From Ginglymostoma cirratum (lineage: Eukaryota), in NCBI GenBank assembly GCA_024137785.1, contig JAHRHZ010000002.1, positions 20,834,898-20,898,897 of the forward strand: DNA of 64,000 nucleotides. The letters run 5' to 3'. The notes beneath the pieces were generated by a model. That model worked only from the letters and a program-made list of their open reading frames with translations. It had not been told where the DNA came from and ran no database searches. The position numbers and the translations under genes are program-made. Of this stretch, positions 5,956 through 64,000 are shown one piece after another (the stretch's first letter is position 1; the number at the start of each line of letters is the position of its first letter).

Positions 5956-5995
5956 ATGCTACTTCTGCTCCAGGCTCTTATCTGGATCTCTCATG
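5956..5995 (+). CDS. Gene 1 signal peptide exon (coding part; exon starts 5899), [13 protein letters not shown]
   Basis: Hydrophobic leader; donor CATG|GTAGGG phase 1 joins the IgV exon in frame; paralog at 43103-43142. Confidence 0.8.
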
Positions 5996-20900: not shown

Positions 20901-20956
20901 ATATTGATGGGAAAAACTCTGCCCCGCTGACAATCTGCAGGATTGAAGGACACTGA
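5956..20956 (+). CDS. Butyrophilin-like gene 1 (spliced): join(5956-5995,6760-7128,12106-12390,13182-13301,13596-13622,15133-15159,17410-17436,17712-17738,18053-18079,20406-20956); 499 aa; SP-IgV-IgC-TM-coiled coil-B30.2
   Basis: All introns GT-AG and phase 1; joined frame is open for 1500 nt; domain order is the butyrophilin family architecture. Confidence 0.88.
6760..7128 (+). CDS. Gene 1 IgV exon
   Basis: VVLDC...MEVHW...YRDRTELF...[20 protein letters not shown], a BTN/MOG/B7-type V domain; acceptor tctccag, donor G|GTCAGT; 369 nt. Confidence 0.95.
8590..11235. mobile_element. Decayed Penelope-like element pieces in opposite orientations (minus about 8590-9790, plus about 9800-11235) with a nested young insertion at 9187-9488
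   Basis: GIY-YIG-like [10 protein letters not shown]...[13 protein letters not shown] on minus; RT thumb region [20 protein letters not shown] on plus. Confidence 0.75.
11430..11736 (-). mobile_element. HE1-type (V-SINE) tRNA-derived SINE
   Basis: GGCAGCACAGTGGTTAGCAC head; V-domain GTGGAGTTTG..ATTCTCCC..GTCTGC.TGGGTTT; CR1-like tail. Confidence 0.85.
12106..12390 (+). CDS. Gene 1 IgC exon
   Basis: [19 protein letters not shown]...YTCVINN, the BTN C-domain signature; acceptor ttgcag, donor G|GTCTGT; 285 nt. Confidence 0.95.
13182..13301 (+). CDS. Gene 1 transmembrane exon
   Basis: [40 protein letters not shown]; long pyrimidine tract and acag acceptor; 120 nt. Confidence 0.92.
13596..13622 (+). 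CDS. Gene 1 27-nt micro-exon GLRKSEDNL
   Basis: ttttccag| ... |gtaagt; paralog 49309-49335. Confidence 0.85.
13881..14555. mobile_element. Solo LTR (TGTGATG...CATAACA) with 4-bp TSD CTCT
   Basis: TG...CA termini with short inverted repeats; TSD; same family as 54681-55332. Confidence 0.8.
15133..15159 (+). CDS. Gene 1 27-nt micro-exon EHQRLLDVT
   Basis: gttacag| ... |gtgagt; paralog 53690-53716. Confidence 0.85.
17410..17436 (+). CDS. Gene 1 27-nt micro-exon ECEKLQQKL
   Basis: ctctttag| ... |gtaaga; paralog 57560-57586. Confidence 0.85.
   Translation, partial: NVRNFSRS
17712..17738 (+). CDS. Gene 1 27-nt micro-exon EQWRPLVQS
   Basis: ccttttag| ... |gtatgt; identical peptide in paralog 62122-62148. 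Confidence 0.88.
18053..18079 (+). CDS. Gene 1 27-nt micro-exon EWNRIQSYA
   Basis: ctttgcag| ... |gtaaaa; W-containing pre-B30.2 exon typical of BTNs; paralog 63400-63426. Confidence 0.88.
18388..19072 (+). mobile_element. 5'-truncated Penelope-like element (GIY-YIG endonuclease end plus pLTR)
   Basis: ORF 18444-18971 [29 protein letters not shown]; flanked by TCTACAG repeats; absent at the paralogous site near 63750. Confidence 0.85.
19215..19545 (+). mobile_element. SINE-like bipartite element sharing head and tail with the LINE at 49566-53216
   Basis: 5' part matches 49610-49855; 3' GGGACAGGCAATAAA.ACTGG tail matches 53150-53215. Confidence 0.65.
20406..20956 (+). CDS. Gene 1 B30.2 (PRY-SPRY) terminal exon
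   Basis: [17 protein letters not shown]...ERFD...CVLG...[10 protein letters not shown]...[16 protein letters not shown]; stop TGA 20954-20956. Confidence 0.95.
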
Positions 20957-43102: not shown

Positions 43103-43142
43103 ATGTTTCTCCTGCTCCAGATTCTCGTTTGGATCTTTCATG
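43103..43142 (+). CDS. Gene 2 signal peptide exon (coding part; exon starts 43046), MFLLLQILVWIFH
   Basis: Hydrophobic leader; donor CATG|GTAGGG. Confidence 0.8.
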
Positions 43143-46100
43143 GTAGGGAAATAAATTTGAAAGATAACGGAAACCTGTTTTCTCTTTCATATTGTTGGGA
43201 TCATTGCACCCTGAGCTAAAATTTCCTCTGTTTCTCACTTTTCGTGTTTCTCTATTCCTCGTTTCTGTTTTTTGGCCCTCTGTCTCCAATCTCCATCACC
43301 ATACCTCGCTGTCCCTCTGCCTTCCCCTCTCTGCCCCTCTATCCCTCCCTGCCTGTCTCTCTGATCCTCCCTCTCCATCTCTATCCCCTGCTGCCTCTCT
43401 CTCTCTCTCTCTTTCTCTGTTAAAAACATCAGTATATAGCTGTAATAACCTAAGTGGTGAGCAATGGATCTGATTCTCTCTCCAGTGGCTTTAACCGAGG
43501 CATTGGTAGATTTTGCGGTGACAGGATCACTTGAACCCATAGTTGGGGTTTTCAGGAGCAATGTTGTTCTGGAATGTCAACTGGTGCCATCCAGAATCCC
43601 ACAGAATATGGAAGTTCGCTGGATCAATGTGGCATATGGCTACAACTCACCTGTCCACATGTACAAGGAGGGAGTGGACGATTTGACACATCAGCCCTCG
43701 GCATACAGAGGCCGGACCGAGCTGTTTCTTGACAAAGTGGCACAGGGGAATGTCTCTCTTAGGCTCAAGGATGTCCGAGTCTCCGACAGGGGACAGTACA
43801 AGTGCTTCGTGGCATCTGATGAAAATCACCAGGAGTTTAAGCTCACGCTGAATGTGACAGGTTAGTGACCATTTTGGAAACACCCTATTTGACCTGCTCA
43901 GTGATGAGTTTGTTGAGCTAAAGGACATTGACCTTGACCTTGATAGAACACAAATAGTTCGAGACCCCTACAGGATCGACACTGAGAGGCTGTTTCTGCT
44001 GACGGAGGAATCTAGAGCACAGGCGCAGTCTCAGGATAAGGGGATGATCACTTAGCACTGAGACGGGGAGGAATTTCTTCAGCCTGAGGGTGTTTAATCT
44101 ATGGATCTCATTGCTGCAGAGGGCTGTGGAGGCCACGTCATTGAATGTATTTAAGACAGAGATTTATAGGTTCTTGACTGGCCAGGGGATCAAGTGTTAT
44201 GGGGAGAAGGCAGGAAAACGGGTCTCTGAAACATATCAGCCATGATTAAATAGTGGAACAGACACGATGGATCAAATGGCCTAAATTTGCTCATATACCT
44301 TATGGTCCAACACTTAGCCCGTAGACTTGTATGCTTTGGCATTGCAAGTGTACATCTAAATATTTCTTACATGTTTTGAGGATTTCTGCCTCTACCACCC
44401 TTACAGAGTTCTGGGTTCCCACCATCCTCTGAGTGAAAACATTTTTCCTCACATATCCTCGAAACCTCCTACTCCTTCCCTTAAATCCGTGTCCACGGGC
44501 CATTGATCACTCCACCAAGGGAAAAAAAAGTTGCTTCCTGTCTACCTTGTCTTTGCTCCTCATAATTTAATGCACCCTTTAATCATTGTGTTTGTCCCCC
44601 TCCGTAGTTGCCTCTGCTCAAAGGAAAGCCACTCCAGTCTGTCCAATCTCTCTTCATAACTGAAACTCTTCAGCCCAGGCAACATTCTGGTAATTCTCCT
44701 GTGCACTCTCTCCAATGCAAAATGACATCCCTCCTATAACGTAGATTCCGGAAATGCAAACAGAATGTCTGAGTGGTTGTTTTGGATGTGGGGAATACAA
44801 TTCCGCATACTAAATGATCTTATAAGAGAAAACATGTTTCTTCATCTCTGCCTTAACTGCAAAATCATGTACTTTTAATTAAAAGAAAAGCATTGTAGAT
44901 GCTGAAAACCTGAAATAAAGACAGGAAGTGCTGGAAAAATTCAGCAGGTCTACCAGCATCCGTGGAGGGAGAAACCAAGTTAAGATTTCAAGTGTAATAT
45001 GGCTCTTCAAAGAGGGAAATATTCGGAGGATTCCATCCATTCTTCCCTTCTGGGATTGAGACTTTACTTCTTTGAAACTTTGGTCTAGAGTTTTGGTCTT
45101 CAGCATAATTGCCAGTCCAGTCTTAACTTACTCTTAAAAAAATTGTGTCTTTGGTCTGAGTTGAATTATATGAGTTTCAGGAAAATCCATTTGTGATTTG
45201 CGAAACACTAAACAGCTCATGGGCACCTGCAAATATGTTTAGTCACCGAAATTTTGAACTGAGACTGGAGTCCACCTTTTGAGGTTGTGCGCTTTTTATT
45301 GGAAGGTTAGAGGTGTAGACTATTTTCTCAATGGGGAAAAGGTTTGGAAGTCTGAAGTATAAAAGACCATCGGAATCCAAGTCAGGATTCTCTTAAGGTT
45401 AACATTCAAGTTCAACCGGCAGTTTGGAAGGCAAATGTAATGTTGGCATTCATTTCAAGGGGATTAGAATACAAGAGTAGAGATGTGCTGCTGAGGTTGT
45501 ATATGGCTCTGCTCAGACCTTATTTCGAATATTGTATGGGGTTTTAGGCCCTATATCTAAGGAAGAATGTGCTGGCGTTGGATGGGGTTCCAGAGGACGT
45601 TATAGTGACGACCATGGGGATGAAGAACTTTTCAAATGAGGATCAGTTGAGGACCCTGGGTTTGTACTCAGTGAAGTTTGCAATGATGGTGGTGGGGGTG
45701 GGGTCTGATTGAAATTTACAGAATACTGAGAGGCTTGGATAGAATTTCTACTAGTAGAGGAGGTTAGGACCCAAGGGCTCAGCCTCAGAGTGAAAGTATG
45801 AATCTTTAGAACTGAGACATGGAGGCATTTCTCCAGCCAGTGTACGGTTAATCTGTGGAATTCATTGTCACAATGGGATTTGGAGGCCACATCATTGAGT
45901 GCATTTAAAATAGAAATAGATAGACTCATAGGGAGATCAAGGGTTATGGAGAGAAGGCAAGAGAATGGGGTTGAGGAACATATCAGCCATGACTGAATGT
46001 AGTGCAGACTCAATGGGCTGAATAACCTAATCCTGCTCCTAAATCTTGTGATCTTTTGGAGTATTCCAGATTCAAATCTGGTTAAAGTTACTTTAAAACA

Positions 46101-49100
46101 ATGCCAGAGAACAATTTTATGGTGCACGCAGGTCAACTTCATAGTGAATTAAATGTTTCTGCAATGTTTATGAGCTTTTAAAAGGTCCTGTTCGAGAGTT
46201 TTAAAAAACAATGTTGATCCTGGAGCCTCTTTGAAGGCCCAGAAACGAGGGCCATTTGTAGAAACTTTGTCCTGATGAATAATTTGACTATGGGTCATTT
46301 CTGTCTGGATTGTCCCTCTCTCATCTCTCTGAATGCAGTGTCTTCTGCCCTCCCCCAACTTCTTGCCCTGACAGATTGTGATTGAATCATGGTTGCCCTC
46401 CAGAAAGTACAAGTCAGCTACGATCTGACCGAGTGGTGTAGAGAGGCCATGACAGGCTTTGCGGCCTACTCCCCTTCCTGATGTCTCTGTGATTGCAGGT
46501 ACAGGCCGCCAGCCCAGGATTGAGATGGAGGGCCAAACGGGGGATGGCATCAGACTGGGCTGCAGATCCGAAGGGTGGTACCCAGAGCCACCCATCCTGT
46601 GGACGGACGGAGACGGAGAGAATGTAGCAGCCCAGCAGCAAACCATGTATCAGCCGGACACTCAGGAACTGTTCACAGTCAGCAGCTTCATCGAGATCCC
46701 CAAGCAGTCCACCAACAAGTACACTTGTGTCATTAATAACATGATTCTGAAGGAGAAACAGGAGGCTTACATCCAGATTGCAGGTCTGTCACGGTGGGAG
46801 AAGACCTTTACAGATACAAAGCAAACTGGGGGAAAGGACATGAATCTGATTGTAGAGAAATATATAAAATCCCGAGGAAACTCTGTGATTGAAACTGGCT
46901 CCTTATGGCCCTGTTTAGCCAGAAGTGTCAAAGAGAGGCCCCTCATGGCTTTGGCTTGCCTCTTGTGGCAACAGAAGACATTTCACGGGAGGGAGAGAGA
47001 GAGTGATGGAGTTTGAGGAAGAGTGTGAAGCTGCAATAGAGGGAGAAGGAGTGGATGTGATGCAGGTTCAGGGGAGGGAGTGAGTGTGATGGAAGTGGGG
47101 AGGGAGAGGGTTGAATGGAGTTTTCAAAAAGGGAGAGATGTGATGGAGAGAGAGTGTGTGGGTGATGAAGGGAGAGGGAGGTAGTGGAACGGATGTTGGG
47201 AAGAGGGAGACGAGTAATGGAGGGTGAGGGGCTGATTGAATTTGGGTACATAAAGGGCATGGATAGGTTGAAGAGTCAAGGTCTTTTCCCCAGGGTAGAG
47301 CAGTCCAAAATCAGAGGGCATAGATTTAAGGTGAGAGGTAAAAGACTTAAAAGGGACCCAAAGGGCAATGTTTCATGAGAGGATGGTGCAAGTATGGAAT
47401 GAGCTGCCAGAGGAGGTGGTGGAGGCTGGTACAATTACAACATTTAAAAGATATTTGGATGGGTATTTGAATAGGAAGAGTTTGGAGGGATTTAGGCCAA
47501 TTGCTGACAAATGGGACTAGATCCGTTTAGAATATCTGGTTGGCATGGTTGAGTTGGAGTAAAGGGTCTGTTTCCATGCTATACATTTCTATGACTCCTT
47601 ATCATTCTAAAGGGTGTGACAATGGGTTTGTGTTAACTTAAACAGTTGAATGGTTCATTTTCTCACTCTCTCCCTCCTCACTGTCCACCCCCTTCTCCTT
47701 TCCCTCAACCCCGATCTCTGTCTGTCTCTCTTCTCCCTTCTCACCCTCTCCTTCTTCCTCCCCTCCATCTTGCCACCTCTCCGCCTCAAACTCTTATTTT
47801 CACTTTCTTTCTCTCTGTCTCTTACTCATTCTCCATCCTTCCCCTCTCCCTCTGTCCTCAATGTTTATGCCCTCCCCACTCTCACTGTCAAATTTGTCTG
47901 TCCCTCTTCCCTCTTCCCGCTTACCCTTGCCACCTCCTGCTCTGTCTCTCTTCTCTCTCTCTCCCTCTTGCTTACTCCCTCTTCCCCCTCCTCCTCCCTT
48001 TCCCACACAATCTTCTCCCCTCCCTCTCCTCCTCCCTCTCATTCCCTCTCTCTTCCCCCGCTCTCCCTTACATCCACACAACCTTTCCCCTCTCCCTCTC
48101 CTTCTCCCACTCTCTCTCCTCTCATTCTCTCTCCTCTCTGTGTCCCTCTCTTCCCCTCCCCTTCCTTGCCTTCCTCTCTTCACCTTCCCTTTCTCTCCAT
48201 ACAGATTCCTTCTTCCCCCATGTTTCCGAATGGCAGATAGCATTCTGGATCCTGTTTGCTCTGATTTTTGCAATAGTCGCTGCCGCAGTGTGGTACCTTC
48301 GGAAATTACAGAATGAGATTCAAGGTGACGACCTCTGCTCAAACACTGACAACTCTTCTCTAAGAATAGAATACTGCGTACAATCTGGTCACCCTTCTGT
48401 AGGAAGGATGCTGTTAAACTTGAGAGGGTCCGGAAAAGGATTTACAAAGATGTTGCCAGGTTTGGAGGGTTCAAATTATAGGGAGAGGTTGAATATGCTG
48501 GGACTTTTTCCCTGGAGTGTCAGTGGCAGGGGCAATCTTATAGAAGTTTATACAATCATGAGGGGAACAGATAGTGTGAATAGCTAAGGTTATTTCCAAG
48601 GGTGGGGGAGTCCAAAACTAGAGGCCATTGGTTTAAGGTGAGAGGGGAAAGATTTAAAGGGGACCCGAGGGGTAACTTTTTCACACAGAGGGTGGCGCAT
48701 GTATGGATTGAGCTGCCAGAGGAAATGGTGGAGGCTGGTACAATTACATCACTTAAAAGACATCTGGACGAGTACATGAGTAGGAAGGGTTTAGAGGGAG
48801 GAGCAAATTACAGCAGATGCTGGAATTTGTACTGAAAACAAAAAGTGCTGGAGATCAAGCAGATCATAGCGGGTCAGGCAGCATCCATGGAGAGAAAGTA
48901 AACTAAAGTTTTGAGTCTAGATGACGCTTCATCAGAGCATCACTTCGAGGGATGTGGCCCAAATACTGATGAATGGGACCAGGTTAGATTGGGATGTATG
49001 GTCGGTATGGACGAGTTGGACCAAAGGGTTTGTTTTCCAGCTGTATGACTCTGATGAATCTATAATAATCCATAAACAGAATCTAATAATTTGTTAACAC

Positions 49101-52100
49101 AACCTAAAACAGACAGTGCTGGAAATATTCCATAGATCATGCAGAATCTGTGAAGAGAGAGACCAAATTAATATTTGAGGGGAAATAAGGATTTATTTTT
49201 AGTGAGGTGTATAATGAGGAACCAGTTCATGATAGTCTGATATTGACACCATCTCCAGAGGTCATGGTGCCCATTGGATTCATTCATTTATTTGGTTTTC
49301 TTTTCTAGGCCTCAGGAAATCTGAAGATTTTTGTGGTAAGTGATGTTTCTTCAGTCTGTGGGACATGTGCTGATGTTATATTGACTCTCCCTGTTGAGGA
49401 ATTTCACACTGTCATCCTGACCTTTACTGTTTCTGTCTTGAGAGGGGCCAGACCCCTCCTATATGTTACTGACCACAACGGTCTCAGGAGGTTCCCTGTG
49501 TCAGTTCCTAATCCTACTCTCAATTATCTTGTCAGGGTATTCTATGAGTATAAATCCTACCTGTAGGGGATCGGTGATGGCCTAGTGGTATTATTCCTAG
49601 ACTATCGCAACCAACTAATGTTCTGGGGACCTGGGTTCAAATCGCACTAATCGATGGTGGAATTTGAAATCAATAAATTTAAAAATAAGTCTGGAATTAA
49701 GAATCTACTAAACACCATGAAATCATTGCCGATTGTTGGAAAAACCCATCTGGTTCACCAATGCCCTTCAGGAAAGGAGATCTGCCACCATCACCTGGTC
49801 TGGCCTACATGTGACTCCAGACTCACAGCGTGTGGTTGACTCTCAATTACCCTCTGAAATGACCTAGCAAGCCATCCATCATAGAATCCCTACAGTGTAG
49901 AAACAGGCCCTTTGGCCCAACGAATCCACACCGACCCTCAGGGCATTCCATCCAGACCCAACCCCTATCACCCACCTAAGTTACACATCCCTGAACACTA
50001 CAGGCAATTTAGCATGGTCAATCCACCTACCCTGCACATCCTTGGACTGTGGGAGGAAACCCGAGCAACTGGAGGAAACCCACGCAGACCCTGGGAGAAT
50101 GTGCAAACCCCACACAGACAGTCACCCTAGAGTGGAATTGAACCCAGGTCCCTGGCGTTATGAGGCAGCAACGCTAACCACTGTGCCACTGTGACGCCCC
50201 ATTCAGTTGTACCAATCGCTACAAAGTCTTAAAGAAATGAAACTGCGCGGATCACCTGGTATCAACCTCGGCACCGGAAAAGGCAACGGCAGAAACAGCC
50301 CTGTTGATCCTGCAAAATCCTCTTTGCCAACATCTGGTGGTTAGTGCCAAAATTGGGAGAGCTGTCTCAAAAGCTAGTTAAACAACAGTCTGACATAGTC
50401 GTACTCACAGAATCGTACCTTAGAGACAATGTTGCAGACACTACCATCTGCAGGACAGACCCAGCAGAGGTGGTGGCACAGTGGTATACAGTCGGGAGGG
50501 AGTTGCTTTCGGAGTCCTCAACATTGACTCTGGACACCATGAAGTCTCATGGCTTCTTAAACATGGGCAAGAAGCCCTCCTGCTGATTACCACATACCTC
50601 CCTTGGTTGATGAATTGGTACTCCTCCACACTGAATAAGTCTTAGATGAAGCACTGAGGATGGCAAGGGCACAAAATGTACTCTGGGTGGGGAATTTCAA
50701 TGTCCACCACCAAGAGTGGCTTGGCAGCAGTGCTACTGATGGAGCAGGTTGGGTCTGAAAGGACATAGCTGCTAGTCTGGGTCTGTGGCAGGTGGTGAGG
50801 GAAAAACATACTTTACCTCATCCTTACTAATCGGCCAGCCGCAGTTGCATCTATCTATGACCGTATCACAAGAGTGACCATTGCACAGTCCTATGGAGAC
50901 GAAGTCCCACCTTCACATTGAGAATAACCTCCATCTTGTTGTGTGGCACTATCACCGTACTAAATGGGACAGACTTCGCACAGATCTAGAAACTTAAGAC
51001 TGGGCATCCATGAGGCGCTGTGGGCCATCAACAGCACCAGAATTGTACTCTAGCACAATCTGTAACCTCATGGCCCGGCATATCCCCCACTCAGCCATTA
51101 CCATCAATCCAGGGGATCAACCCTGGTTCAATGGGGAGTGCAGGAGGGCATGACAGGAGCAGCATTAGGCATACCTGAAGATGCAGTATCAATCTGATGA
51201 AGCCACCATATAGGACTACTTGCATGCCAAACAATGAAAGCAGCAAGTGATAGACAGAGCTAAGTGATCCCACAACCAACGGATCAGATCTAAGCTCTGC
51301 AGTCTTGCCCCATCCCGTCGTGAATGGTGGTGGACAATTAAACAACTCACTGAAGGAGGAGGCTCCACAAATATCCCCATCCTCAATGATAGAAGAGCCC
51401 AGCACATCAGTGCAAAAGATAAGGCTGAAGTACCGAATGGATGATCCATCTCAGCCATCTGCAGTGGTCCCCAGCATTACAGATACCAGAGTTCAGCCAA
51501 TTCGATTCACTCCACGTGATATCAAGAAATGGTTGGAGACACAGGATACAGCAAAGGATACAGTCCCTGGCAACATTCCGGCAATAGTAACTAAGCACTT
51601 GTGCTCCAGAACTTGTCATTCTCCTAGCCAAACTGTTCCAGTACAGTTACAACGCTGTTATCTTCCCGACAATGTGGAAATTTATCCAAGTATGTTCTGA
51701 ACACAAAAAGCAGGAGAAATCCAACTCAGCCAATTACTGCCCCATCAGTCTACTTTCAATAACCAGTAAAGTGATGGAAGGTGTCATCAACAGGGCTATC
51801 AAGCAAAACCTGCTCAGCAATAACCTGCTCAGTGACGCCCAGTTTGGGCTCCTCCAGGGCCACAGATCCTGACCTCATTACATCCTTGGTTCAAACGTGG
51901 GCAGAAGAGCTGAATTCCAGAGGTGAGGTGAGAGTGTCAGCCCTTGATATCGAGGGTGCATTCGACTGAGTGTGGTATCAAGGAGCCCTAGTAAAACTGT
52001 AATCAATGGGTATCAGGGGGCAAAATCTCCGACACATACCCGACACATAGAAAGATGGTTGTAGTCGTTGGAGGTCAATCATCTCAGCTCCAGGACATCT

Positions 52101-55100
52101 CTGCAGGAGTTCCTCAGGGTAGCGTCCTAGGCCCAACCATCTTCAGCTGCATCATCAATGAACTTCTCTCCATCATAACGTCAGAAGTGGGGATGTTCGC
52201 CGATGATGTTTGCACAATGTTCAACACCATTCGTGACTCCTCAGATACTGAAGCAGTCCGTGTTCACGTGCAACAAGATCTGGACAATATCCAGGCTTGG
52301 GCTGACAAGTAGCAAGTGACATTCGCACCACACAAATGCCAGGCTATAACCATCACCAATAAGAGACAATGTAACCACCGTCCCTTGACATTCAATGATG
52401 TTACCATCACTGAATCCCCCACTATCATCATCCTGGGTGTTATCATTGACTAGAGACTCAACTGGATTCGCTGCACAGACACAGTGGTTAGAAGAGATAA
52501 CAAGGCGTGGGGCTGGATGAACACAGCAGGCCAAGCAGCATCATAGGAGCAGGAAAACTTGACGTTTCGGGCCTAGACCCTTCATCAGAAATCAGAAATC
52601 TTCTAACAGTGGTTAGAAGAGCAGGTCAGAGCCTAGGAATACTGCGGTGAGTAACTCACCTCCTGACTCCTCAAAGCCTGTCCACCATTCTACAAGGCAC
52701 AAGTCAGGAGTGTGATGGAATACTCCCCACTTGCCCTGGATGAGTGCAGCCCCAACAACACTCAAGAAGCTTGACACTATCCAGGACAAAGCAACCTGCT
52801 GGAATTTCACTACATCCACAAGCAACCACATCCTCCACCACCAATGCTCAGTAGCAGCAGTGTGTACTATCTACAAGATGCACTGCAGATATTCACCAAA
52901 GACCCTTAGACAGTACATTCCAAACCCACAACCACTTCCATCTAGAAGGACAAGGGCAGCAGATATATGGCTACACCACCACCTTCAGGTTCCCCTCCAA
53001 GCTACTCACCATCCTGACTTGGAACTATATCGCCGTTCCTTCACTGTTGTTGGGTCAAAATCCTGGAATTCCCTCCCGAATGGCATTGTGGGACAACCCA
53101 AAGAAGGAGGTTCAAGAAGCTAACTCACCAACACCTTCTCAAGTGCAACTGGGGACAGGCAATAAACACTGGGATCCAGCGACACCCACATCCCACAAAT
53201 GAATAGAAAAAAGAAACATGCAACCCCATGCTCCAAGATTCTCTATCCCTTTCTGTCTCTTCCTCTCTCACAACTCTCTCTCTTTCTCCCCTCTCTTTTG
53301 GCCCCCTTGCCTCCACTCTTCCACCCACTCTTTCCCCCCTTTCTCTTCCCCCCCCCCCCTCCCCCCCTCTGTCTCTTTCCCCCTCCATCTCTTTCTGGCA
53401 CATCTCTTTTTCCCCACCTCTCTCTTCCCCACCTTCCCACACTTCTTCCCCTTCTTCTCTCTTCTTCCCTTTCTCCCCCCTCTCTCTTCCCTTCTCCATG
53501 TCCCCCTTCTCCTCCTCCTTTCTCCGTACTCCTGCTTTCTCTCTCCTCCTCCTCTCTCCCTCTGATCTTACAATGTGAGAATGGGCAATGTGATTTTGGT
53601 GATGCGTGCTGCATTGGGAATGGAACAGGGTTCAGTGTGAGGGGTGAAGGGCTGTTGCTGATTTAATGTTTTCGTTTGATCTGTTACAGAACATCTAAAG
53701 CTGATGGAAGAAGTCGGTGAGTAACCGTTCAAAGCAGAGAGTTAAATGTGATGGGAGTGGGAAACCCAGTGATGTGGACATATCGTCACATCTGGGTGAA
53801 AAACATTTGTGTAACTGTAATTCTAGGTCTGGTGATATAATGGATTACAAATAGATTGGGTTTGAAGGTCTCCATGGCGTGAATAATAAGAAAGATTTGC
53901 ATTTTATGGCACCTTTCACATTCTGAGGATGTCCCAATGTTCTTTGTTAAAAGTGACGTACATAACAAAACAAGGACTGGGAGTAAGAGTCGGCCACTTG
54001 ACTTGAGCTGTTTCATTGTTCAGTCTGATCATGATGAATCTACTTCCCTGCACTATCCCCCATAAAGACTCTACCATTTTATTTTTCTGTATTTTGGCTT
54101 GATGAGGTAAAGAATTCTTAAGATTCACAACCCTTTCAGTGAGGAAATTCTCTTCACCACAGACCTGAATGGGAAAGATGGGTTTCAGAATGGCCAGTGA
54201 GTTAGCTTTGAGAATCTAAGGAGACTGTCAATACAGTGCAATGTTAGAATGGTCAGTTTCTGTCTGTTGGAAAGGTGAACTCTATGTCATGGGTGAACTG
54301 AGGTTCCGTCATGAGCTTTTGGCATCAAGTCACAGTCCAAGATTTGGGTACAATGCTGTTGCTGACACTTCAGCGCATAGCTGAGGGAGTGCTACACTGT
54401 CAGAGGCACTGTCTTTTACATCAGACTTTAATGCAAGACATTGCATGCTTTTGAATGTTTTGTAGCTCTTAGCTGTATCTCTAGGAAGAACAAAGAACTT
54501 CTCCCCAGAGTCCTAGCCAATATTTACCACTCTGTAGTGGAATCACAGGAATCTGTTGATTTGGTAATTGTCCTGGTTACTGTTTTGTGGAATCTTCCTG
54601 TGCACAGATTAGTTGCTGCAGAAGGACACAGTACAGAAGAGGCCTTTCAGCCCATCAAGTCTATACTGATCTGTTTCCTTTGTGATGAGATATGCTTTTG
54701 AGAGGGATTTGTTTTGTCTTGGTTCTTCTCAGATAGGACTGTTGTAAACCTGCTGACAAGGTGTCTGCTCCTGGAAAGCAGAGTAAATAACTTTGAGTTT
54801 ATTTTTATATTAGGCAAAAGCAGCATGAATGTGTGGAGTCAGGCTCACAGAGACCTAGGGTTTTAGTCTTCGTTTTGCTTTCACTTGTTGAAGTTGGGTT
54901 TTGGAATGAAGCTGCTAAATACAGTCTCTCTCTTTAGAGCTGAAAATGCTTGAGTTTTCTCTCTGCTGCTAGATTCATTCTGTCAGTGTTCCTTCTCCTG
55001 GACTGGAGGACATAGCACGTGAGGGAAATCTGTTTTACCGAACTTGCCTTTGAAAGGGTGTGTTTATGGGGTGCTGCCATATTAGAACATTTGATGAGTT

Positions 55101-58100
55101 GTAATTAAATGATATATTATTTTGTTAAGTCTTCTAGGAGAATTATTCTTTGCTTTTCTTGTATTTTAGCTGTGATATAGGAATAAAGTGTGTTTAGCTT
55201 AAAGCCTAGTAATTTGAACAATCAAATCACATCTTCAAAGTAGTGCCTTACCTTGCCTTGAAATAAGATAAAAATTAAGGTCTATGCTATCTCCTTGATA
55301 TATTTGAGGGGGTTTGAGTCTGGTCCATAACACCTTAATTCGACAGTTCTGTTTCTACAAGACACTGGAGGACACACTGTAACTGTTACTTAAATCTAAA
55401 TTAATCCTCAGTATTTCTCACATTGATTTTTTTTAAACTTTCAGAGCAAGAAAAAATGAAGGCAGATAAAGGTAAGTGATCAGAAACCCGGGGATGGTGG
55501 AGGTGGTTCCATTGAGATCCTGACTGTGTATCTGTGTGTCCGGGCAGTTCACAGCACATCCAAGACTCGGGTCAATTTCAAACGGAGATAACAAATGGTC
55601 ATTTTATTTGTCATCTCACTGAGGTGATTTTACTTTTTTTTTGCAGAGTATGGAAGACTTCACCAGAAGATTGGTAAGAACTTGAAACCAATTGGATAAA
55701 GGTGATGGAAGAGAGGGAGTTGTGGATGGATTAACCCCACAGTAAGAGAATGGGAAAGCAATGGGGAAGGCTGGATGGTAACTCTGACTGGGACCAGACC
55801 CTAGTAGGAGAGAAGCAGTTTTGGAATAACGTGGAAGTCCTGCAGATCCTCCAATGGGTCTGCCGTAAAGTGGGTGATGGGTGAGGGAGTGGGTTTGGGC
55901 CTCTGTCATTCTGGGAGTAAGAGTAAGACAAGAGTTGACCTGGTTACTGTCAACTCTGAATCACATTGTTGTTTGTTTTACATTTCAGAGATCGCTAAGC
56001 AAAAAGGGAAACAAGGTGAGTTATGAGAACACACATTATTTGGATTGTAGTATTTTATTTCAGTGTCAGAATGTCTGAACACAATTTAACAGGTTTGTGA
56101 AAAACTATTAATGGCCTTATCACAAATTGTTCCATTAAAGCCAACGCCAAATTATAATGCTCTCCTGTGACTATTGGTGAAGTGGGCGAGTTAACTCAGC
56201 CAATCCTTCAATGTGAGCTGTTCACATTCACCAATCTCAGAACTGGGGTCCTCGAGAAGCTATTTTCCCAGGAATTTCCTGAGCTGATACAAACAGATCT
56301 GCGGATATCTGGAAACACATGCATGTTGAAATGAGCAAGTTTCAATATCAACAGTCTTCAGCTATTTATTAATAGTGCAATGAGACCACTGGCTTCACCA
56401 ATCCGTAAAGTGCTCGCTGATCAAAACCGTCAGCAAATGCTGGAAGGACAGAGTCAACATTGGTTTCAAAAGAAGCATTGGTTTACGTGGGTAGAGTCTA
56501 AACAGAGCATAAACGGCAAAATTATTCTCCAGATTCCTGCGATTTTGTTGACTTTGATATAAAGACTTATGAAACTTGAGCAGGATGCCTGAAGCTCATC
56601 GCAAGGTTCTAACCAGAGGGATAATCTTCACATTAACACACACTCCTCCTCCTCCCTGCAAATCAACAAATCACATGTCATTTTTTAAAATTTGGGCATG
56701 TGTTTGTGAATCAGTCATTGATTTCACAATCGATTCTCTTCATAGTTCTATAAATAACCAAATAAAGTAACGTCTACCATATTTCAGTATTTTCTAGTTA
56801 TTTCTAATCTTTGATATTCTGATGTGAGGAATACAAACCTCACTACAGCAGGAGAACAGTGCATTCCTGACAACACACAATTTCATCTAATTCTACACAC
56901 CCTGACTGGGTTCTGACATTTTAACCTGTAAACTTGTGGCCATCCAACACTCTGCTGCCCATGTCTTCACTCATCCTAAGTTCCACTCACCTGCTTACTG
57001 ACCTACATTAGCTCCTCGTAAGACAATGTCTCCATTCCTAATTTCTCACTCAAGTCTTGCAGTCCCTTCATGTCCTTGCCCTCTCTACTCTGTAACTCTG
57101 AGATTCCTGTGGTCCTTTAATTCTGGCCTTTTGCACACCAAAAATTATAATGTTACTTCATTGGAGAATGTAATTTCAGTTGCCTCCGTTCCAAACTCTA
57201 CTCCTGCATCCTCAATTCACTTTCATCTTTAAAACACATCGTAAAAACATCCCTGTTTGATAAGCTTTTAGTTACCTCTCATATTTTTATTTATAATATT
57301 TGAAGCATTTTGAGATATTGTTGAAGAAAAACAGCCACTCTAAAAATGTAAATTGTTGTGTAAAATACGTACAATGTATTGTCTGACAAGTGAGCAATGT
57401 CACACAAGGATCATTCAGATAACAATTTCTTTTAACTGCTTTTTTTTTCTAAACTATATTCTCTTTCAAAAAATCTCTGATTGGGAAATGATTTTCAGTG
57501 ACTTTTTTGATATAATCAATGATCTGGTTTTAAATTGCCTTGTCTATTTTTCTCTTCAGAATGTAAGAAGCTTCAGCAGGAGTTTGGTAAGAGATTATTT
57601 CCAAATCATAAACACTCTGGGATTGGGTTTTCAACTCGTGTTCAGCACTGGTTTCTTCACTAGCATCACATGGCCATTGAAAGCTAAAAGCAATGTGGAG
57701 GACTATCCCAAGTTTGTTTCTGGTGCTATCAGCTTAAATGGGTTTGTTGTTGCTGGATGTATCTAGGGGTAATTGATGGGAATAGCGTAGTGAGAGCTTT
57801 ACTCTATATCTAGCCCATGCTGTACATGTCCTGAGAGTATGTGATGGGACAGTGTAGAAGGATAAGGTTTAGTCTGTTTCTGACCTGTGCTCTACTTGTC
57901 CTGGGAGTGTTTGATGGGGACACTGCAGACAGAGCTTTACTCTGATTCCAACCCTGTAGTTTACCTGACCTGGCGGTGTGTGATGGGATAATACAGGGGG
58001 AGCTTCACTCTCTGTATAGTCCATGCTATATACCTGTGACTATTTAATGAGACAATGTGAAAGGATGGGTTTTACACTGTATCTAACCTGTGCTGTAACT

Positions 58101-60836
58101 GTCCTGACAATGTCTGAAAGGGACAGCGTTGAGGGAGTTTAGCGCTGTCCTGTCCTGGGTCTCCTGATACTGCTAATGTTTTAATTTTGTGCCCTGACTC
58201 TCAGCCTCAGACTCTCACCCAGTTAGTGTAATATTTTGGTAGGGTTAATGACAGACACAACGGTGGTATGTGCTACCTGAGATGGTTTTGCTTGCCAGGA
58301 CAATATTGAGTTAACCAATTTAGCTCTTGCTGCCCTTTCCCTCTGAGGGAGTGGTGGGGGTGGGGATTGGGAAACGTTGGATAATGTGGATCTCTGAGGA
58401 ATTAAGGTTCCACACTGACATTCCTGGCAGGGATGGGACAGAACAGTGGGTGGTGGAATGGATAATCTCATCGCTGACCTGTGCAGGGTGAGGGGAGGCC
58501 CGAACAGTGTTCACACCAAGTGGTGACTCCTTCTGGAAGCTTCTATGCTTTAATATGTCTGTTTCTTTATCCTTCTACAGAAAAGGAGAAGGCTGCCATT
58601 CATGCAGGTAAGCAGAGAGCTGAGGAATGGGAGTTCCTGTTGTAGGAGAGGACTAGCAGATGTGTTACCAATTCTGATTTGATGCACTCCTGGAGGTTTC
58701 AACATGTGACTTTGTGCCTCCAATTCCTTGTAGCCAATCAAACAGGCCTTCCCTATTCTCCAGTTTGTTTTAGGAGTTCAAAAACATTCAAATAATTCAC
58801 ACACTGTGTAATGTCTGTGAGCTTCCATTCCTGGGCATTGGTCACTGTGACAAAGATATTGGCCAGTCATTTCTGGAGAGTTGGTTCCCCATGGCAGGGA
58901 AGGATGGGTGGTGAAGATCTGTTTATGTTACAAATATTTAACGTCAGGGTTATTGCCTTCTGGTCACTTCCCTACTCTGGAGGGAAATGAGACAGAGTCA
59001 TAGAGATGTACAGCATGGAAACAGACCTTTCAGGCCAACTAGTCCATGCTGACCAGATATCCTAAATTAATCGAGTCCAATTTGCTGGCATTTGGTCCAT
59101 ATCCCTCTAAACCCTTCCTATTTATATACCCTAAATGTTGTAATTGTACCAGCCTCCACCTCTTCTTCTGGCTGTCCATTGCATACACTCACCACCTTCT
59201 CTGCAAAAAAATTGCCCCTTTGGTCCCTTTTAAATCTTTCCCCTGTCATCTTAAACCTATGCCTTATAGTTCTGGACTCCCCTACCCTGGGGAAAACATC
59301 TCGGCCATTCACCCTCTCCATGTCCTTCATGATTGTATAAACTCTTATAAGGTCACCCCTCAGCCTCTGACGCTCCAGGGAAAATAGCCCCCACCTCTTC
59401 AGTGTCTCCCTATAGCTCAAACCCTCCAACCCTGGTAACATCTTTGTAAATCTTTTCTGTACCCTTTCAAGTGTCACAACACCTTTCCTATAGCAGAAAC
59501 TCTTCACTCCCCAGCTAACACCAATGTTGGCCTGACCCAATGGTGACCCTGGCATTTGGGTAGATGATTCCTGATGTAGTGGGGGGCTTGCAGTACGGAT
59601 ACAGCTGGCACAGAGAGCAGTCCAATGGATCGATGTTGCACTACCCACTGCTCCAGCTTGTGGTGGTTGGTGCTACCACTGGCCACTGCTGGTTTCTCAC
59701 AGGCCGAGTGAGACTAGCTGATGGAGACTGAGCTCAGAGCAGAGAGTTCAATATGGAGTGCAGAGGGCAACAAAGAATAGAAGATGGTGACATTGTGAAA
59801 TTAAGGTTTGTAATTGATACTTCTCCCTTGTCTGTTACAGAACATGAGCAGTTCAAGAAAGAAGTTGGTAAGTGGTTATATCGAATTTTGAATTTACATC
59901 GATGGTCACTTTGGACGAAATGCATATTTGCTGCAGCTGTTTCTCAGTCTGTGCTTGGACAGGGGGCTGTTTTCTCAGTCTGTACTCAGACTGGGGGCTG
60001 TTTCTCAGTCTGCACTCAGGCTGGGGGCTGTTTCTCAGTCTGTGCTCGGCCTGGGCCACTTTGTCAGTCTGTGGTTGGGTTGGGGACTGTTTTCTCGGCC
60101 TGTGCTTGGGCTGGGGAGCTGTTTCTCAATCACATTATCAGTGTTGAGGAGCACACATTTTAGCCTTGCTTTACCCTTTTCACTAGCACTGTATAAAGTC
60201 TCACCTGGTTTATTGTTCCATGTTGTTGCTAAGCTCTTGATTCTGTCTTACAGATGAAGCGAGGGAGTCAGACAAAGCAGGTATGTGACTGTGTGTGGGC
60301 CTTGAGGAGTAAACTTCACCTCTACACTAGGATGGGGAGGGGACTGTGATCGTGTATGCTCTGACAGAGAACAGGTAGAAAACCCAGGCACAGCAAATGC
60401 TTCTCTCTTCACTAATTTTTATTTTCAATCTCTCAGTCTCACTCTCTTTTTGTGTTTTTTCTCGCTTTCCTCTCCCATTCTCACCCTCTGCTCCTCAGCA
60501 TCTCTTCCTCTCTCTCTGCTCTTAATGCTCCCCATGTCCTTTCTTTCTTTCTCTTTTTCATTCCTTCTCTTTCTATTTCTTCTTTGCCTTTGCTTTCTCT
60601 TCTCATGTTTCCCCATTGCCCCCTCTCTTCTCATCCTACTCATATCTCTCCATCTCCCTCTCTCTTCTCCTCCTAGTCATGTCTCTCCATTTCTCCACTT
60701 TGTTCATTCCCTCTTCCCTATATTCTGTCTTCTCAAATCTCTCTCTCTGTATTCTTTGTCCACTTAACTCTGTCTGTCTGACTGTCTTACTCTGTCTGCC
60801 TGTCTGTGTCTCTCTTGCTGTCTCTGCCTATCCATA

Positions 60837-60867
<31 letters not shown>

Positions 60868-63426
60868 GTGTCTGTCTCTTACCTTGTGCAAAATGATTGG
60901 TTAGTGATTTAAAACAGAAAGTGCTGAAGAAAGTCAGCAGGTCTGGGAGCATCAGTTGAGAGAGAAAAACAGAGTTACAGTTTGTTTCAAATCAACGTCA
61001 TTATCTTTGTACTATCATTTGTAAATCACTTGGTAAAGTGTTAGAAGATAGTATATGAATACAGGTCAGTTAATTTCCGTTTGAAGTCAGCATTTGGAAA
61101 TGTCTGTTGATATTGAAACTTTTACGTGTTGGTAATATCATATAGTCAATTGTTTATAAAATCATTCATTTTGTTTGAAGATTTTAGCTTTCTTGCTCTA
61201 ACTATTTCTGATCATTCCTTACTTGCAGATTATCAGAAGCTACTCACTGAATTTGGTGAGTTGTTTGTCATTAAAAATGTGGCTTCATCTTCAGCTTGGC
61301 TACAGTTAGTAAATGAGCATAAAACCAGGTTCTGGTCTGGACCATTCTTTTCCTCACTCGGGTATAACAAGCTTGGAATGACTGGTTTCCCTCCTGATGT
61401 TGCAATCAACCTGTCTCCTGACACATATTTGTAGGCAGAGCTGCAGACTTTCATGACAGTATGAACATCTAGAGATCACCATGGCTTCAAATGGTGGCTT
61501 TGTGAAAAATGACTTGAGCATTGGACCCCTCGTTTTCAGCTGAAATTATAGAGTTTGAAATAATTCAAACTGTAGATTCACTTTGAATTGATCATGTGAG
61601 ATTCTTCACATCCCAGTTCATGATCATGGATTTGATTTTTAATTTGCATCAGGGTGGCAAGGCTAGCTTTTATAAAATGACTCTGGGCAATGGGTCCAGT
61701 TTTGTTCGAGATGGAAACTCAGGCAATTCTATAGCAGGTGGCTAATCCTCAAGTGCTTCATGGAAAATATACTCTTACATGCTCTTTATCAAATATCTAC
61801 ATAACAACAGATTTGAAGTGGGGAACTTCTGAAACTCACTCCATGGTGCCACGAGGTGGCTACATGTTGACGTAGGAAAATAGAATGGGAACTGCTGGCA
61901 TCGGTATTTACAATGTTGATCAGAAATGCTGCCCAGAGGTCGGGACACCACACCCTCGCAAGATTTGCTTAACAACGCATCAGTTATTGCTGCCATAACT
62001 TAAAAAAGATGTGACTTTTATTCATTAAGAAAACTCTGGCATGAAAGGAAAATTTGTTGATAATGCGAAATCTGTTGAGTGGGCTTTATTCACACTTATT
62101 CATTTCACTATTTCCTTTTAGAGCAATGGAGACCTCTGGTCCAGTCAGGTATGTTCCCTGTATGAACGCACTCGAAAAAAAAATCTTCACTTGTTATTTC
62201 TATTAATGATTTGGATGTGAATATTGGAGGTATGCTTAGTAAGTTTGCAGATGACACTTGGTGGTGTAGTAGACAGTGAAGAAGGTTACCTCAAAGTACA
62301 ACGGGACCTTGGTCAGATAGGCTGATGGGCTGAGGAGTGGCAGATGAAGTTTAATTTAGATAAATGTGAGGTGCTGTATTTTGGAAAGGGAAATCAGGGC
62401 AGGATTTTTAAAGTTAATGGGACAGTCCTAAAGGGGTGTTGTTGAACAAAGAAACCTCAAAGTACAGGTTTATAGTTCCTTGAAAGTGGAGTCGCAGGTA
62501 GACAGGATAATGAAGAAGGCATTTGATATATTTGCCTTTATTGGTCAGTGCATTGAGTATAGGAGTTGGGAGGTCGTGTTGTGGCCGTACAGAACACTTT
62601 TGGAATACCGTGTTCAATTCTGGTCTCCCTGATATAGGAAGGATGTTCTGAAAGTGGAAAGGGTTCAGAAAAGTTTTACAAAGGTGTTGCCAGGATTGGA
62701 GGGTTTGAGCTATAGGAAGAGGCTGAATAGGCTGGGGCTGTTTTTCCCTGGAGTGTCGGAGACTGAGGGGTGACCTTATAGAATTTTATAAAATCATGAG
62801 GAGCATGGATAGGGTGAATAGCCAAGGTGTTTTCTGCAGGGTAGGGGAGTCCAAAACTAGAGGGCATAGGTTTAAGGTGAGAGGTGAAAGAATTCAAAGA
62901 GACCTAAGGGGCAACTTTTTCACACAGAGGGTGGTGTGTCTATGGAATGAGCTGCCAGAGGAAGTAGGTGGAGGCTGGTACAATTACAACATTTAAAAGA
63001 CAGCTGGATGGATATATGAACAGGGATATGGGCTAAAAGCTGGCAAATAAGACTACATTAATTCAGCATATTTGTTTGGTATGGACGAGTTGGGTTAAAG
63101 GGTCTGTTTCTGTGCTGTACAGACTTGAATGAATCTATTAGCATATGTGTATTGTTTGACGTTTGTCCAGGATAATGTTGAAAAAAATAGAATAGGAGGG
63201 TGTGAAGATCAAAATTATGTTAATCGCTACTTTTACTTAATTTAGTCCAGGGGTTTTGTGTTTGCGTGTCTTTGCTTGTCACTACCCACTGTGGGTCAAC
63301 CTCACATCCGTGGTTTACTGAAAACCACAATGTACTTTAGCTGTTGTCTTATTTGAGAGTATTACAGATTATTAATTACAGATGTTACTGTTTCTGCAGA
63401 GTGGAACAGGATACGGAGCCATGCAG
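43103..63426 (+). CDS. Butyrophilin-like gene 2, 3'-partial: join(43103-43142,43486-43860,46499-46783,48205-48324,49309-49335,53690-53716,55445-55471,55647-55673,55989-56015,57560-57586,58581-58607,59841-59867,60254-60280,61229-61255,62122-62148,63400-63426); B30.2 exon expected beyond 64000
   Basis: All introns GT-AG phase 1; open frame of 381 codons; collinear with gene 1 to the window end (63770 region matches 19090 region). Confidence 0.85.
43486..43860 (+). CDS. Gene 2 IgV exon
   Basis: VVLEC...MEVRW...YRGRTELF...[20 protein letters not shown]; 375 nt. Confidence 0.95.
46499..46783 (+). CDS. Gene 2 IgC exon
   Basis: GIRLGCRSEGWYPEPPILW...YTCVINN; 285 nt; 9 of 95 residues differ from gene 1. 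Confidence 0.95.
47240..47600 (+). mobile_element. CR1 3' fragment
   Basis: GLFPRVEQSKIRGHRFKVRG motif; absent from gene 1. Confidence 0.8.
48205..48324 (+). CDS. Gene 2 transmembrane exon
   Basis: [40 protein letters not shown]; 120 nt. Confidence 0.92.
48365..49060 (+). mobile_element. CR1 3' fragment with a small nested PLE-terminus piece (about 48800-48940)
   Basis: TRGHWFKVRGERFKGDPRGNFFTQRV motif; absent from gene 1. Confidence 0.8.
49309..49335 (+). CDS. Gene 2 micro-exon m1 GLRKSEDFC
   Basis: ttttctag| 27 nt |gtaagt. Confidence 0.85.
49566..53216 (+). mobile_element. Decayed CR1-group LINE (APE plus RT) with a tRNA-like 5' end, interrupted by an HE1 SINE (49878-50200, minus) and a PLE terminus (52497-52605)
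   Basis: QSDIVVLTESYL, NYCPISLLSITSKVMEGVIN, GVPQGSVLGPTIF, MFADD; ends in GCAATAAA and an A-rich tail. Confidence 0.85.
53690..53716 (+). CDS. Gene 2 micro-exon m2 EHLKLMEEV
   Basis: gttacag| 27 nt |gtgagt. Confidence 0.85.
54681..55332. mobile_element. Solo LTR (TGTGATG...CATAACA) with 4-bp TSD CCTT
   Basis: TG...CA termini; TSD; homologous to 13881-14555. Confidence 0.8.
55445..55471 (+). CDS. Gene 2 micro-exon m3 EQEKMKADK
   Basis: actttcag| 27 nt |gtaagt; no counterpart in gene 1. Confidence 0.75.
55647..55673 (+). CDS. Gene 2 micro-exon m4 EYGRLHQKI
   Basis: ttttttgcag| 27 nt |gtaaga; no counterpart in gene 1. Confidence 0.78.
55989..56015 (+). CDS. Gene 2 micro-exon m5 EIAKQKGKQ
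   Basis: catttcag| 27 nt |gtgagt; no counterpart in gene 1. Confidence 0.75.
57560..57586 (+). CDS. Gene 2 micro-exon m6 ECKKLQQEF
   Basis: ctcttcag| 27 nt |gtaaga; paralog of 17410-17436. Confidence 0.85.
57765..58160 (+). repeat. Degenerate minisatellite, about 60-65 bp unit (GTGTTTGATGGGACAGTGTAGAGGGAGCTTTACTCTGTATCTAACC...), about 6 copies
   Basis: Recurrent GATGGGA..., AGCTTTACTCT and CCTGTGCTGTA motifs at regular spacing. Confidence 0.75.
58581..58607 (+). CDS. Gene 2 micro-exon m7 EKEKAAIHA
   Basis: cttctacag| 27 nt |gtaagc. Confidence 0.75.
58995..59500 (-). mobile_element. CR1 3' fragment
   Basis: LERVQKRFTKMLPGLEGLSYRE...RLRGDLI. Confidence 0.85.
59841..59867 (+). CDS. Gene 2 micro-exon m8 EHEQFKKEV
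   Basis: ctgttacag| 27 nt |gtaagt; resembles m2, including acceptor context. Confidence 0.78.
59935..60130 (+). repeat. About 31-bp tandem repeat (CTGTTTCTCAGTCTGTGCT...GGGGG), about 6 copies
   Basis: Directly visible repeats of TTTCTCAGTCTG. Confidence 0.85.
60254..60280 (+). CDS. Gene 2 micro-exon m9 DEARESDKA
   Basis: tcttacag| 27 nt |gtatgt. Confidence 0.72.
61229..61255 (+). CDS. Gene 2 micro-exon m10 DYQKLLTEF
   Basis: acttgcag| 27 nt |gtgagt. Confidence 0.78.
62122..62148 (+). CDS. Gene 2 micro-exon m11 EQWRPLVQS
   Basis: ccttttag| 27 nt |gtatgt. Confidence 0.88.
62200..63140 (+). mobile_element. CR1 ORF2 3' fragment
   Basis: SKFADDT through [10 protein letters not shown]; absent from the paralogous gene 1 intron. 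Confidence 0.85.
63400..63426 (+). CDS. Gene 2 micro-exon m12 EWNRIRSHA
   Basis: ttctgcag| 27 nt |gtaaga. Confidence 0.88.
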
Positions 63427-64000
63427 GTAAGATTCTCAATGTATAGGACTACCCTAAACAGGAACATTTGTACCAAATGTGTGCGTGTGTGTGTGTGCGT
63501 GTGTGTGGGCATGGGTGTGGGCAGGCATTGTCACGCATGAGGGGGCTATCTACATCAAACTAGCTGACCAGAAAACATTCCCACCCTTACCTCCTGCTAT
63601 TGGAGCATCGGAAGAATTTACAAGATTGCTTAACAATTTGATTGGCCATATTATGATTGAAATTCCCCAGACACAAGTTGTGAAGTGTCCCAGAGACAGG
63701 GAGTCTACTCACTTTAACACAAGACCTCCTTAGGATTTTAAGACAATTGACAGCTCGATTTGCACTTTTTCTGACATCACATCTTTATTCCTCATTTTTT
63801 CTTCTAATTTGAATTCAAATTCTCAACTACCCCGGTGGGATTTGAACTCATCTTCTCTAGGCTTTGGGTGCAGCAGCAGAATCAGTACAGACTTGTAATA
63901 AAATATACTGTTCTATACAGCATGAAAGGAAGGTGCAACTTGGTTGCGCCATCTTTGTTGTAGCAGTGCACCAGGAATAGTTAACTGTCAATCATTATTC

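Follow-up and report, generated by a model that had tools for sequence, protein, structure and literature searches.

The locus examined here raises the question of what protein is built from a row of 27-nt exons, and whether the two types between which these exons seem to alternate reflect the geometry of a helix. The window, i.e., the whole stretch of DNA that was analyzed, comprised 64,000 nucleotides of a Ginglymostoma cirratum contig. The initial annotation had read the row as a stalk with an 18-residue repeat, in which even exons carry a hydrophobic pattern and odd exons are mostly polar.

Gene B and Its Micro-Exon Array

A splice-site scan of the window returned 12 units of 27 nt between 49309 and 63426 and five more at 13596-18079. 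Across ~455 kb of the contig (both strands), 27-nt candidates numbered 40, with 0-10 at each of the remaining lengths in the range 12-51 nt. All ten peptides quoted in the initial annotation were located where it had placed them on the plus strand, each encoded by 27 nt in phase 1 between AG and GT.

The twelve micro-exons from 49309 to 63426 (m1-m12) are part of a butyrophilin-like immune-receptor gene (gene B) with the order IgV-IgC-TM-rod-B30.2 (Table 1), a gene family that the initial annotation had left unnamed. The joined gene B exons encoded 553 amino acids with zero internal stops, and 433 residues were identical to those of a 553-aa Hemiscyllium butyrophilin-like protein. Its relatives indicate a carpet shark. 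Type I features were present, namely in-frame leader and TM exons and a helix at residues 242-268 in the model. The best PDB matches of the gene B orthologues were BTN2A1 and BTN3A, both by sequence (E 2.6e-99) and by fold. The micro-exon array is a cytoplasmic juxtamembrane rod, because the TM exon precedes the array in gene order. An extracellular stalk or the neck of a C-type lectin was ruled out by the same order.

The IgC donor of gene B (46784-46864) looked weak and the frame was open into the intron; the same was seen from 12391 onward. Two database models (P0014 and P0016) ran into the IgC intron, which either truncates the protein or inserts 26 residues.

Table 1. Positions of gene A, of the gene B exons and of the last gene B intron (window numbering unless a locus is given).
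Feature	Position	Strand	Evidence or content
Gene A, tandem duplicate of gene B, 499 aa, open	5956..20956	+	Leader, IgV, IgC, TM, five 27-nt exons, TRIM-type B30.2 exon
Gene B leader (signal peptide) exon, coding part, phase 1	43103..43142	+	tblastn 12/13 to Hemiscyllium P0004; GT donor
Gene B IgV exon	43486..43860	+	Pfam V-set PF07686, E 3.6e-9; AG..GT borders
Gene B IgC exon (butyrophilin C2-set_3)	46499..46783	+	PF22705, E 1.4e-23
Gene B transmembrane exon	48205..48324	+	Hydrophobic helix in orthologues and model
m1, 27 nt, predicted hinge, off-phase relative to rod	49309..49335	+	Helix break, pLDDT <50 at residues 266-278 (orthologue model)
m2, even type	53690..53716	+	AG/GT borders; m2-m3 joint in RNA
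m3, odd type	55445..55471	+	AG/GT borders; RNA joints
m4, even type	55647..55673	+	AG/GT borders; RNA joints
m5, odd type	55989..56015	+	AG/GT borders; RNA joints
m6, even type	57560..57586	+	AG/GT borders; RNA joints
m7, odd type	58581..58607	+	AG/GT borders; RNA joints
m8, even type	59841..59867	+	AG/GT borders; RNA joint
m9, odd type (predicted exon)	60254..60280	+	AG/GT borders; orthologue alignment
m10, even type (predicted exon)	61229..61255	+	AG/GT borders; orthologue alignment
m11, conserved end exon with W and P; rod-phased, outside odd class	62122..62148	+	Splice-site scan; cross-species scoring
m12, conserved W exon preceding B30.2; outside even class	63400..63426	+	Aligns with pre-B30.2 segment of human BTN2A1
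Last intron of gene B (3163 nt), its start	63427..64000	+	B30.2 exon beyond window
Gene B B30.2 (PRY-SPRY) exon	L001:4590-5107, 2.6 kb past window end		Best PDB match BTN3/BTN2A2 B30.2, E 5.6e-42

RNA aligned to 53620-59900 gave spliced GT..AG joints for all six successive pairs from m2-m3 to m7-m8. In poly(A) reads (run X14) the joints from m2 to m8 were covered by 2, 3, 5, 9, 6, and 7 reads, while contig depth at these joints was 22-39 in run X2 and 65-134 in run X3; run X15 gave no alignments. All gene B micro-exons were symmetric phase 1, so that skipping any of them keeps the frame. No micro-exon-skipping joint occurred among the 15 listed joints between m2 and m8 in three informative runs, where read depth was low and 47 weaker joints lay outside these 15. 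All eight listed skate orthologue sequences were full length, seven of them from transcript-sized contig sources (15 of the 21 cluster members were listed). Isoforms had been expected to differ mostly by even numbers of exons; no skipped isoform was seen in these joints and skate sequences.

The 315-nt m4-m5 intron (55645-56015) was retained in contigs of two runs at a depth of 8-11. The depth of the spliced contig in run X3 dropped by half after m4, from 134 to about 66.

Two Alternating Exon Classes

The alternation of two exon types described initially held for the nine exons m2-m10 and not for m1, m11, and m12. Even/odd labeling of m2-m10 was the best of 126 at both the DNA level (identity) and the protein level (BLOSUM score), and parity was again the best of 126 with nine sequences (gene B and eight orthologues from chimaera, sharks, and skates). 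Within gene B, DNA identity per 27 positions was 14.7 for even-even, 11.2 for odd-odd, and 10.3 for even-odd comparisons of m2-m10. Mean cross-species scores for the nine sequences were 7.1 (even-even), 4.0 (odd-odd), and -3.0 (even-odd). Large hydrophobic residues made up 33% of even exons and 12% of odd exons, and 54% of odd-exon residues were charged (E/D/K/R). Across species the odd class read E/D-x-E-K-x-A-A/I-x-A, a pattern that was hard to discern in this genome alone.

The W exon m12 (EWNRIRSHA) had been counted among the even exons and has to be removed from that class, its mean score being 0.9 against even exons, compared with 7.1 among the even exons themselves. The hydrophobic m11 was not odd-type, and m1 was off-phase by about 167 degrees. 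Despite belonging to neither class, m11 and m12 shared the helical face of the rod. The likeness of m2 and m8 noted at the outset was confirmed, with 15 contiguous bases shared across the acceptor and only 8 in the runner-up of 66 pairs; across species, it was the weakest among the even pairs (2.6).

Growth of the array by duplication of exon pairs, as first proposed, is plausible; comparison of introns and flanks gave no trace of pair duplication. Parity was absent from the flanking intron bases (rank 90 of 126), and blastn found no intron homology between the exon-pair units of gene B, only dispersed or local repeats. Because introns and splice-site flanks carry no trace of parity or homology, the order of the duplications is unrecoverable.

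Helical Period and Predicted Structure

Eighteen residues in five turns, at 3.6 residues per turn, was the period put forward in the initial annotation. The top Fourier peak of orthologue-averaged hydrophobicity over m2-m12 lay at 3.59-3.60, in agreement with it, and single orthologues peaked at 3.58-3.62 in seven of seven cases. The rod did not follow the canonical heptad period of 3.5, at which the amplitude was 0.051 versus 0.135 at 3.6 (core fraction) or 0.061 versus 0.244 (Eisenberg). Whole-exon shuffles matched the 3.6 amplitude 9, 1, and 12 times in 20,000 (the last for gene B alone), i.e., the hydrophobic period depends on exon order. The direct 18-residue Fourier peak was weak, with shuffles equaling it in 9-96%, and the signal was carried by its fifth harmonic at 3.6.

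Core positions 2, 5, and 9 of the 18-mer were hydrophobic in fractions of 0.56, 0.91, and 0.93, while the fraction at positions 12, 15, and 16 was weak (0.27-0.42). Position 7 of m7 and positions 3, 6, and 7 of m11 mapped to the face of the even-exon core. Almost nothing was contributed to the core signal by m3 and m9. A hydrophobic stripe with polar odd exons had been envisaged; the stripe was recovered at 3.6 and the odd exons were indeed charged, but they added little to the stripe. It had also been argued that skipping one exon would turn the register by about half a turn and that skipping a pair would preserve it. Exon loss in silico bore this out: the signal was kept after loss of two or four exons (mean 0.14) and lowered to 0.10-0.11 after loss of one or three.

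AlphaFold2, given 13 sequences for the Hemiscyllium orthologue, predicts a single helix at residues 280-378 (pLDDT blocks of 72-87) instead of the disordered stalk that had been named as evidence against a helical rod. Homodimer prediction for the 120-residue rod of Hemiscyllium P0004, run without alignment, returned no verdict (score 0.01) and speaks neither for nor against a dimer. A period of 3.6 fits any straight amphipathic helix and is no proof of a dimer by itself. The 18/5 period is described as a recognized coiled-coil period, a heptad plus a hendecad, in which 7+7+4 gives 18 residues over five turns, near the straight-helix value of 3.63 (PMC4786415).

Conservation and Length Changes in Cartilaginous Fishes

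A 108-residue rod without indels was found in 11 named species: Hemiscyllium, two Chiloscyllium, Mustelus, Scyliorhinus torazame, Heterodontus, Cetorhinus, Carcharodon, Leucoraja, Amblyraja, and the chimaera Callorhinchus. Orthologue exon borders were inferred from protein alignment. The split between chimaeras and elasmobranchs is placed at ~420 million years ago in PMC6238376. In the B30.2 tree six candidate orthologues (Hemiscyllium, Heterodontus, Mustelus, Leucoraja, Callorhinchus, and Hemitrygon) grouped with gene B at 99/96. Left out of the orthologue count were P0010 (fused, without the part from TM to m5), P0025 (ends after TM), and P0106 (a fragment).

Four stingray/manta proteins lacked 18 residues, best fitted by m8-m9 (one event), and Narcine lacked 18 residues, best fitted by m4-m5 or m5-m6 (a second event). 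The Narcine protein (P0088) was assigned by rod similarity, outside the tree. The period stayed at 3.58-3.63 in both shortened ray lineages. Both reliable losses (2/2) were exact pairs, which is suggestive and not significant, the chance being 1 in 4 under coin-toss parity. The older Chiloscyllium punctatum model P0002 was without m4-m5 and m9-m10, and the newer model P0011 was complete; P0002 was treated as doubtful and stood outside the reliable loss events.

Orthologues had been expected to differ in length mostly by even numbers of exons. This held in the orthologue group (two ray lineages, one pair each) and broke down in the gene A paralog, where three exons were lost. Lasting length change in the gene B orthologue group thus appears to have proceeded mostly via whole exon pairs.

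Gene A and Neighboring Paralogs

The five 27-nt exons of gene A matched m1, m2, m6, m11, and m12 by exon and intron homology with gene B. Gene A had lost m3-m5 (three exons) and m7-m10 (four exons), which makes it a natural deletion control for the gene B rod. Its m2-m6 junction was off-phase in this genome as well as in Stegostoma and Hemiscyllium. The single exon m11 was absent from two gene A models of Hemiscyllium. In the gene A models P0006 and P0015, both from Chiloscyllium, the m1 and m2 segments had 8 and 7 residues. The Chiloscyllium m2, two residues shorter, returned core residues to the downstream face (one event, seen in database models), so that the core becomes heptad-like again despite the loss of three exons. 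Odd losses are therefore tolerated in this short, re-capped duplicate.

Gene A was chimeric: its ectodomain, its TM, and a portion of its rod are copies from gene B, whereas its B30.2 is TRIM-like; genes of the same type were found in Stegostoma, Chiloscyllium, and Hemiscyllium. The gene A B30.2 exon had 89% identity over 636 nt to a RING/B-box TRIM gene ~230 kb upstream and grouped with three neighboring TRIM B30.2 exons at 99/99 (stretches compared: L043:9365-10000, L045, and L047). It seems that this exon was taken over from the TRIM cluster, by capture or by conversion. The region C2:19.97-20.92 Mb was a dense cluster of ~30 or more B30.2 matches, some of them pieces of one exon and many with stops, and three of its stretches carried RING and B-box motifs.

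Two butyrophilin paralogs lay upstream (C2:20785930-20791070 and 20817722-20826023; L008, L005, and L004) with rod exons of 27/27/21/21/27/27 nt. The second had a B30.2 match with one stop, possibly its end. Another butyrophilin formed an inverted pair at C2:11480-11489 kb (minus) and 11730-11735 kb (plus), with six and four 27-nt exons, the second region including N. In the inverted pair, odd/even alternation was visible by eye and an even exon joined the W exon directly; Scyliorhinus P0101 was its likely orthologue (B30.2 100/99). A third IgC copy at C2:21840010-21840300 (21.84 Mb) was 82% identical to the gene B IgC, and no micro-exon array was found within 40 kb of it (including 5 kb of N).

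Interpretation of the Rod

Taken as a whole, the rod is probably a helix of 18-residue hydrophobic repeats, likely a near-straight 18/5 two-chain coil, with length changes made pair-wise. One nine-residue exon makes 2.5 turns at 3.6 residues per turn, so that by arithmetic only an exon pair is phase-neutral. Even exons carry the core at positions 2, 5, and 9; where odd exons come into phase, at 12/13 and 16 of the 18, they place residues that are small or charged, a contrast likely to produce alternating firm (even) and loose (odd) segments. The predicted continuous helix of ~99 residues likely pairs with a second chain, and the resulting nearly unwound two-chain coil would be hinged at m1. 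With 99 residues at 0.15 nm, the B30.2 domain would sit ~15 nm from the membrane.

A dimer formed through the juxtamembrane coiled coil is suggested by analogy with mammals. The TM/juxtamembrane regions of mammalian butyrophilins are described as coiled-coil dimers (bioRxiv 10.1101/2024.10.02.616253; PMC10665462), those of BTN2A1 and BTN3A as continuous coiled coils of ~120 Å (bioRxiv 10.1101/2024.10.02.616253), and BTN juxtamembrane coils have been proposed as B30.2 spacers (PMC11969061). By analogy with mammalian butyrophilins, the gene B rod is likely to transmit binding at B30.2, in the cytoplasm, to the Ig domains. Selection probably preserves the register, so that lasting gene B length changes would come in pairs, by evolution and not by routine alternative splicing.

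An alternative that we regard as unlikely is that an ancient duplication of two exons left the alternation behind as a relic, and that the rod is a loosely paired or single charged spacer helix, with selection on length and not on register. The highly charged odd exons with few large hydrophobic residues (54% and 12%), the odd losses tolerated in the gene A lineage, the number of solid pair losses (only two), and the mixing of 21- and 27-nt exons in other paralogs of this genome are consistent with such a spacer. It fits poorly with even-exon positions 5 and 9 being hydrophobic in 91-93% across nine sequences from chimaera to skates, with the common face shared by position 7 of m7 and positions 3, 6, and 7 of m11, and with exact pairs in both ray losses.

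Less likely still, the stripe packs on a different partner, which may be a cytoskeletal protein or the rod of a paralog (as a heterodimer or within a four-helix bundle), and the polar odd exons set specificity. The retrieved cartilaginous-fish paralog rods had ~32-78 residues versus 120 here, which leaves no full-length parallel match among them, although gene B adjoins other butyrophilins here and, judging from a fused model, also in a skate. Precedents for both kinds of partner are described in other species: charged core residues set BTN3A partner choice, favoring hetero- over homodimers (PMC10665462), and the chicken BG tail regulates actin-myosin (PMC4046983).

It is very improbable that cells skip exon pairs and thereby tune rod length and partner choice. 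In favor of such tuning, any skip of these phase 1 exons stays in frame, model P0002 is without two pairs, the depth of run X3 halves after m4, and skipping of a single heptad exon is described for macaque BTN3A (PMC6790196). Against it, the 15 listed m2-m8 joints of three informative runs of low read depth contained zero skips and the eight listed skate sequences were all full length.

The favored 18/5 reading can be extended to cartilaginous-fish butyrophilins in general, an extension that is tentative and may well not hold. They would follow an exon-level phase code, in which half-turn-shifting nonamer exons are gained or lost only as pairs. The rod would then be a quantized ruler with steps of 2.7 nm, with a register that has been maintained since chimaeras diverged and that is needed for the relay from B30.2 to Ig. 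If such a code is true, the 18-residue losses in rays, the odd loss in gene A, and the two-residue re-phasing in Chiloscyllium form a ready test series for rod length and phase in inside-out signaling.

Comparison With Known Systems

According to PMC12841164, butyrophilins occur throughout the jawed vertebrates and vary in their number of heptads; by the same source they control gamma-delta T cells via a juxtamembrane coiled coil in which pairing and spacing matter, and they are little studied beyond mammals. The butyrophilin family, short rod exons, and 18/5 geometry are each already known separately, and the surprise of the present locus is limited because of this. In the openly available papers searched, no account of shark butyrophilin rod exons or of an 18/5 rod in nonamer-exon pairs was found; a description may exist elsewhere in print.

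Gene B shares with mammalian BTN2A1 and BTN3A1-3 the order IgV-IgC-TM-juxtamembrane helix-B30.2, and very short ‘heptad’ exons between TM and B30.2 are described as usual for butyrophilin genes (PMC6790196). Unlike the mammalian genes, gene B has twelve exons all of 27 nt and a long regular 3.6 period, and its rod has ~120 residues compared with 44-72 in the BTN2/BTN3-like proteins retrieved. Exons of 27 nt also occur in some mammalian BTN rods. Gene B is placed among the butyrophilins at the level of the family.

Chicken BG genes belong to the butyrophilin family as well and encode a long cytoplasmic coiled coil from 13-36 tiny exons per gene, as described in PMC4046983. BG exons are 21 nt long, in some cases 24; each encodes one heptad and is phase-neutral on its own, whereas the phase-neutral unit of gene B is the nonamer pair. 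Exon number varies between BG genes, which have one Ig domain; in gene B it has hardly changed since chimaeras branched off. Gene B is not a BG-type gene with a single IgV and 21-nt tail exons, having IgC and B30.2 domains and 27-nt exons.

The period of the gene B rod is that of 18/5 coiled coils, from which gene B differs in that one structural period corresponds to two exons in the genome; its proposed dimeric state is suggested by analogy. Gene B represents an old cartilaginous-fish orthologue group; its rod is roughly double the length of those in mammals, and its non-heptad period corresponds to exon pairs. Exon structure and helical phase agree cleanly in this gene, and there are natural deletion variants in which selection on register can be tested against selection on length.
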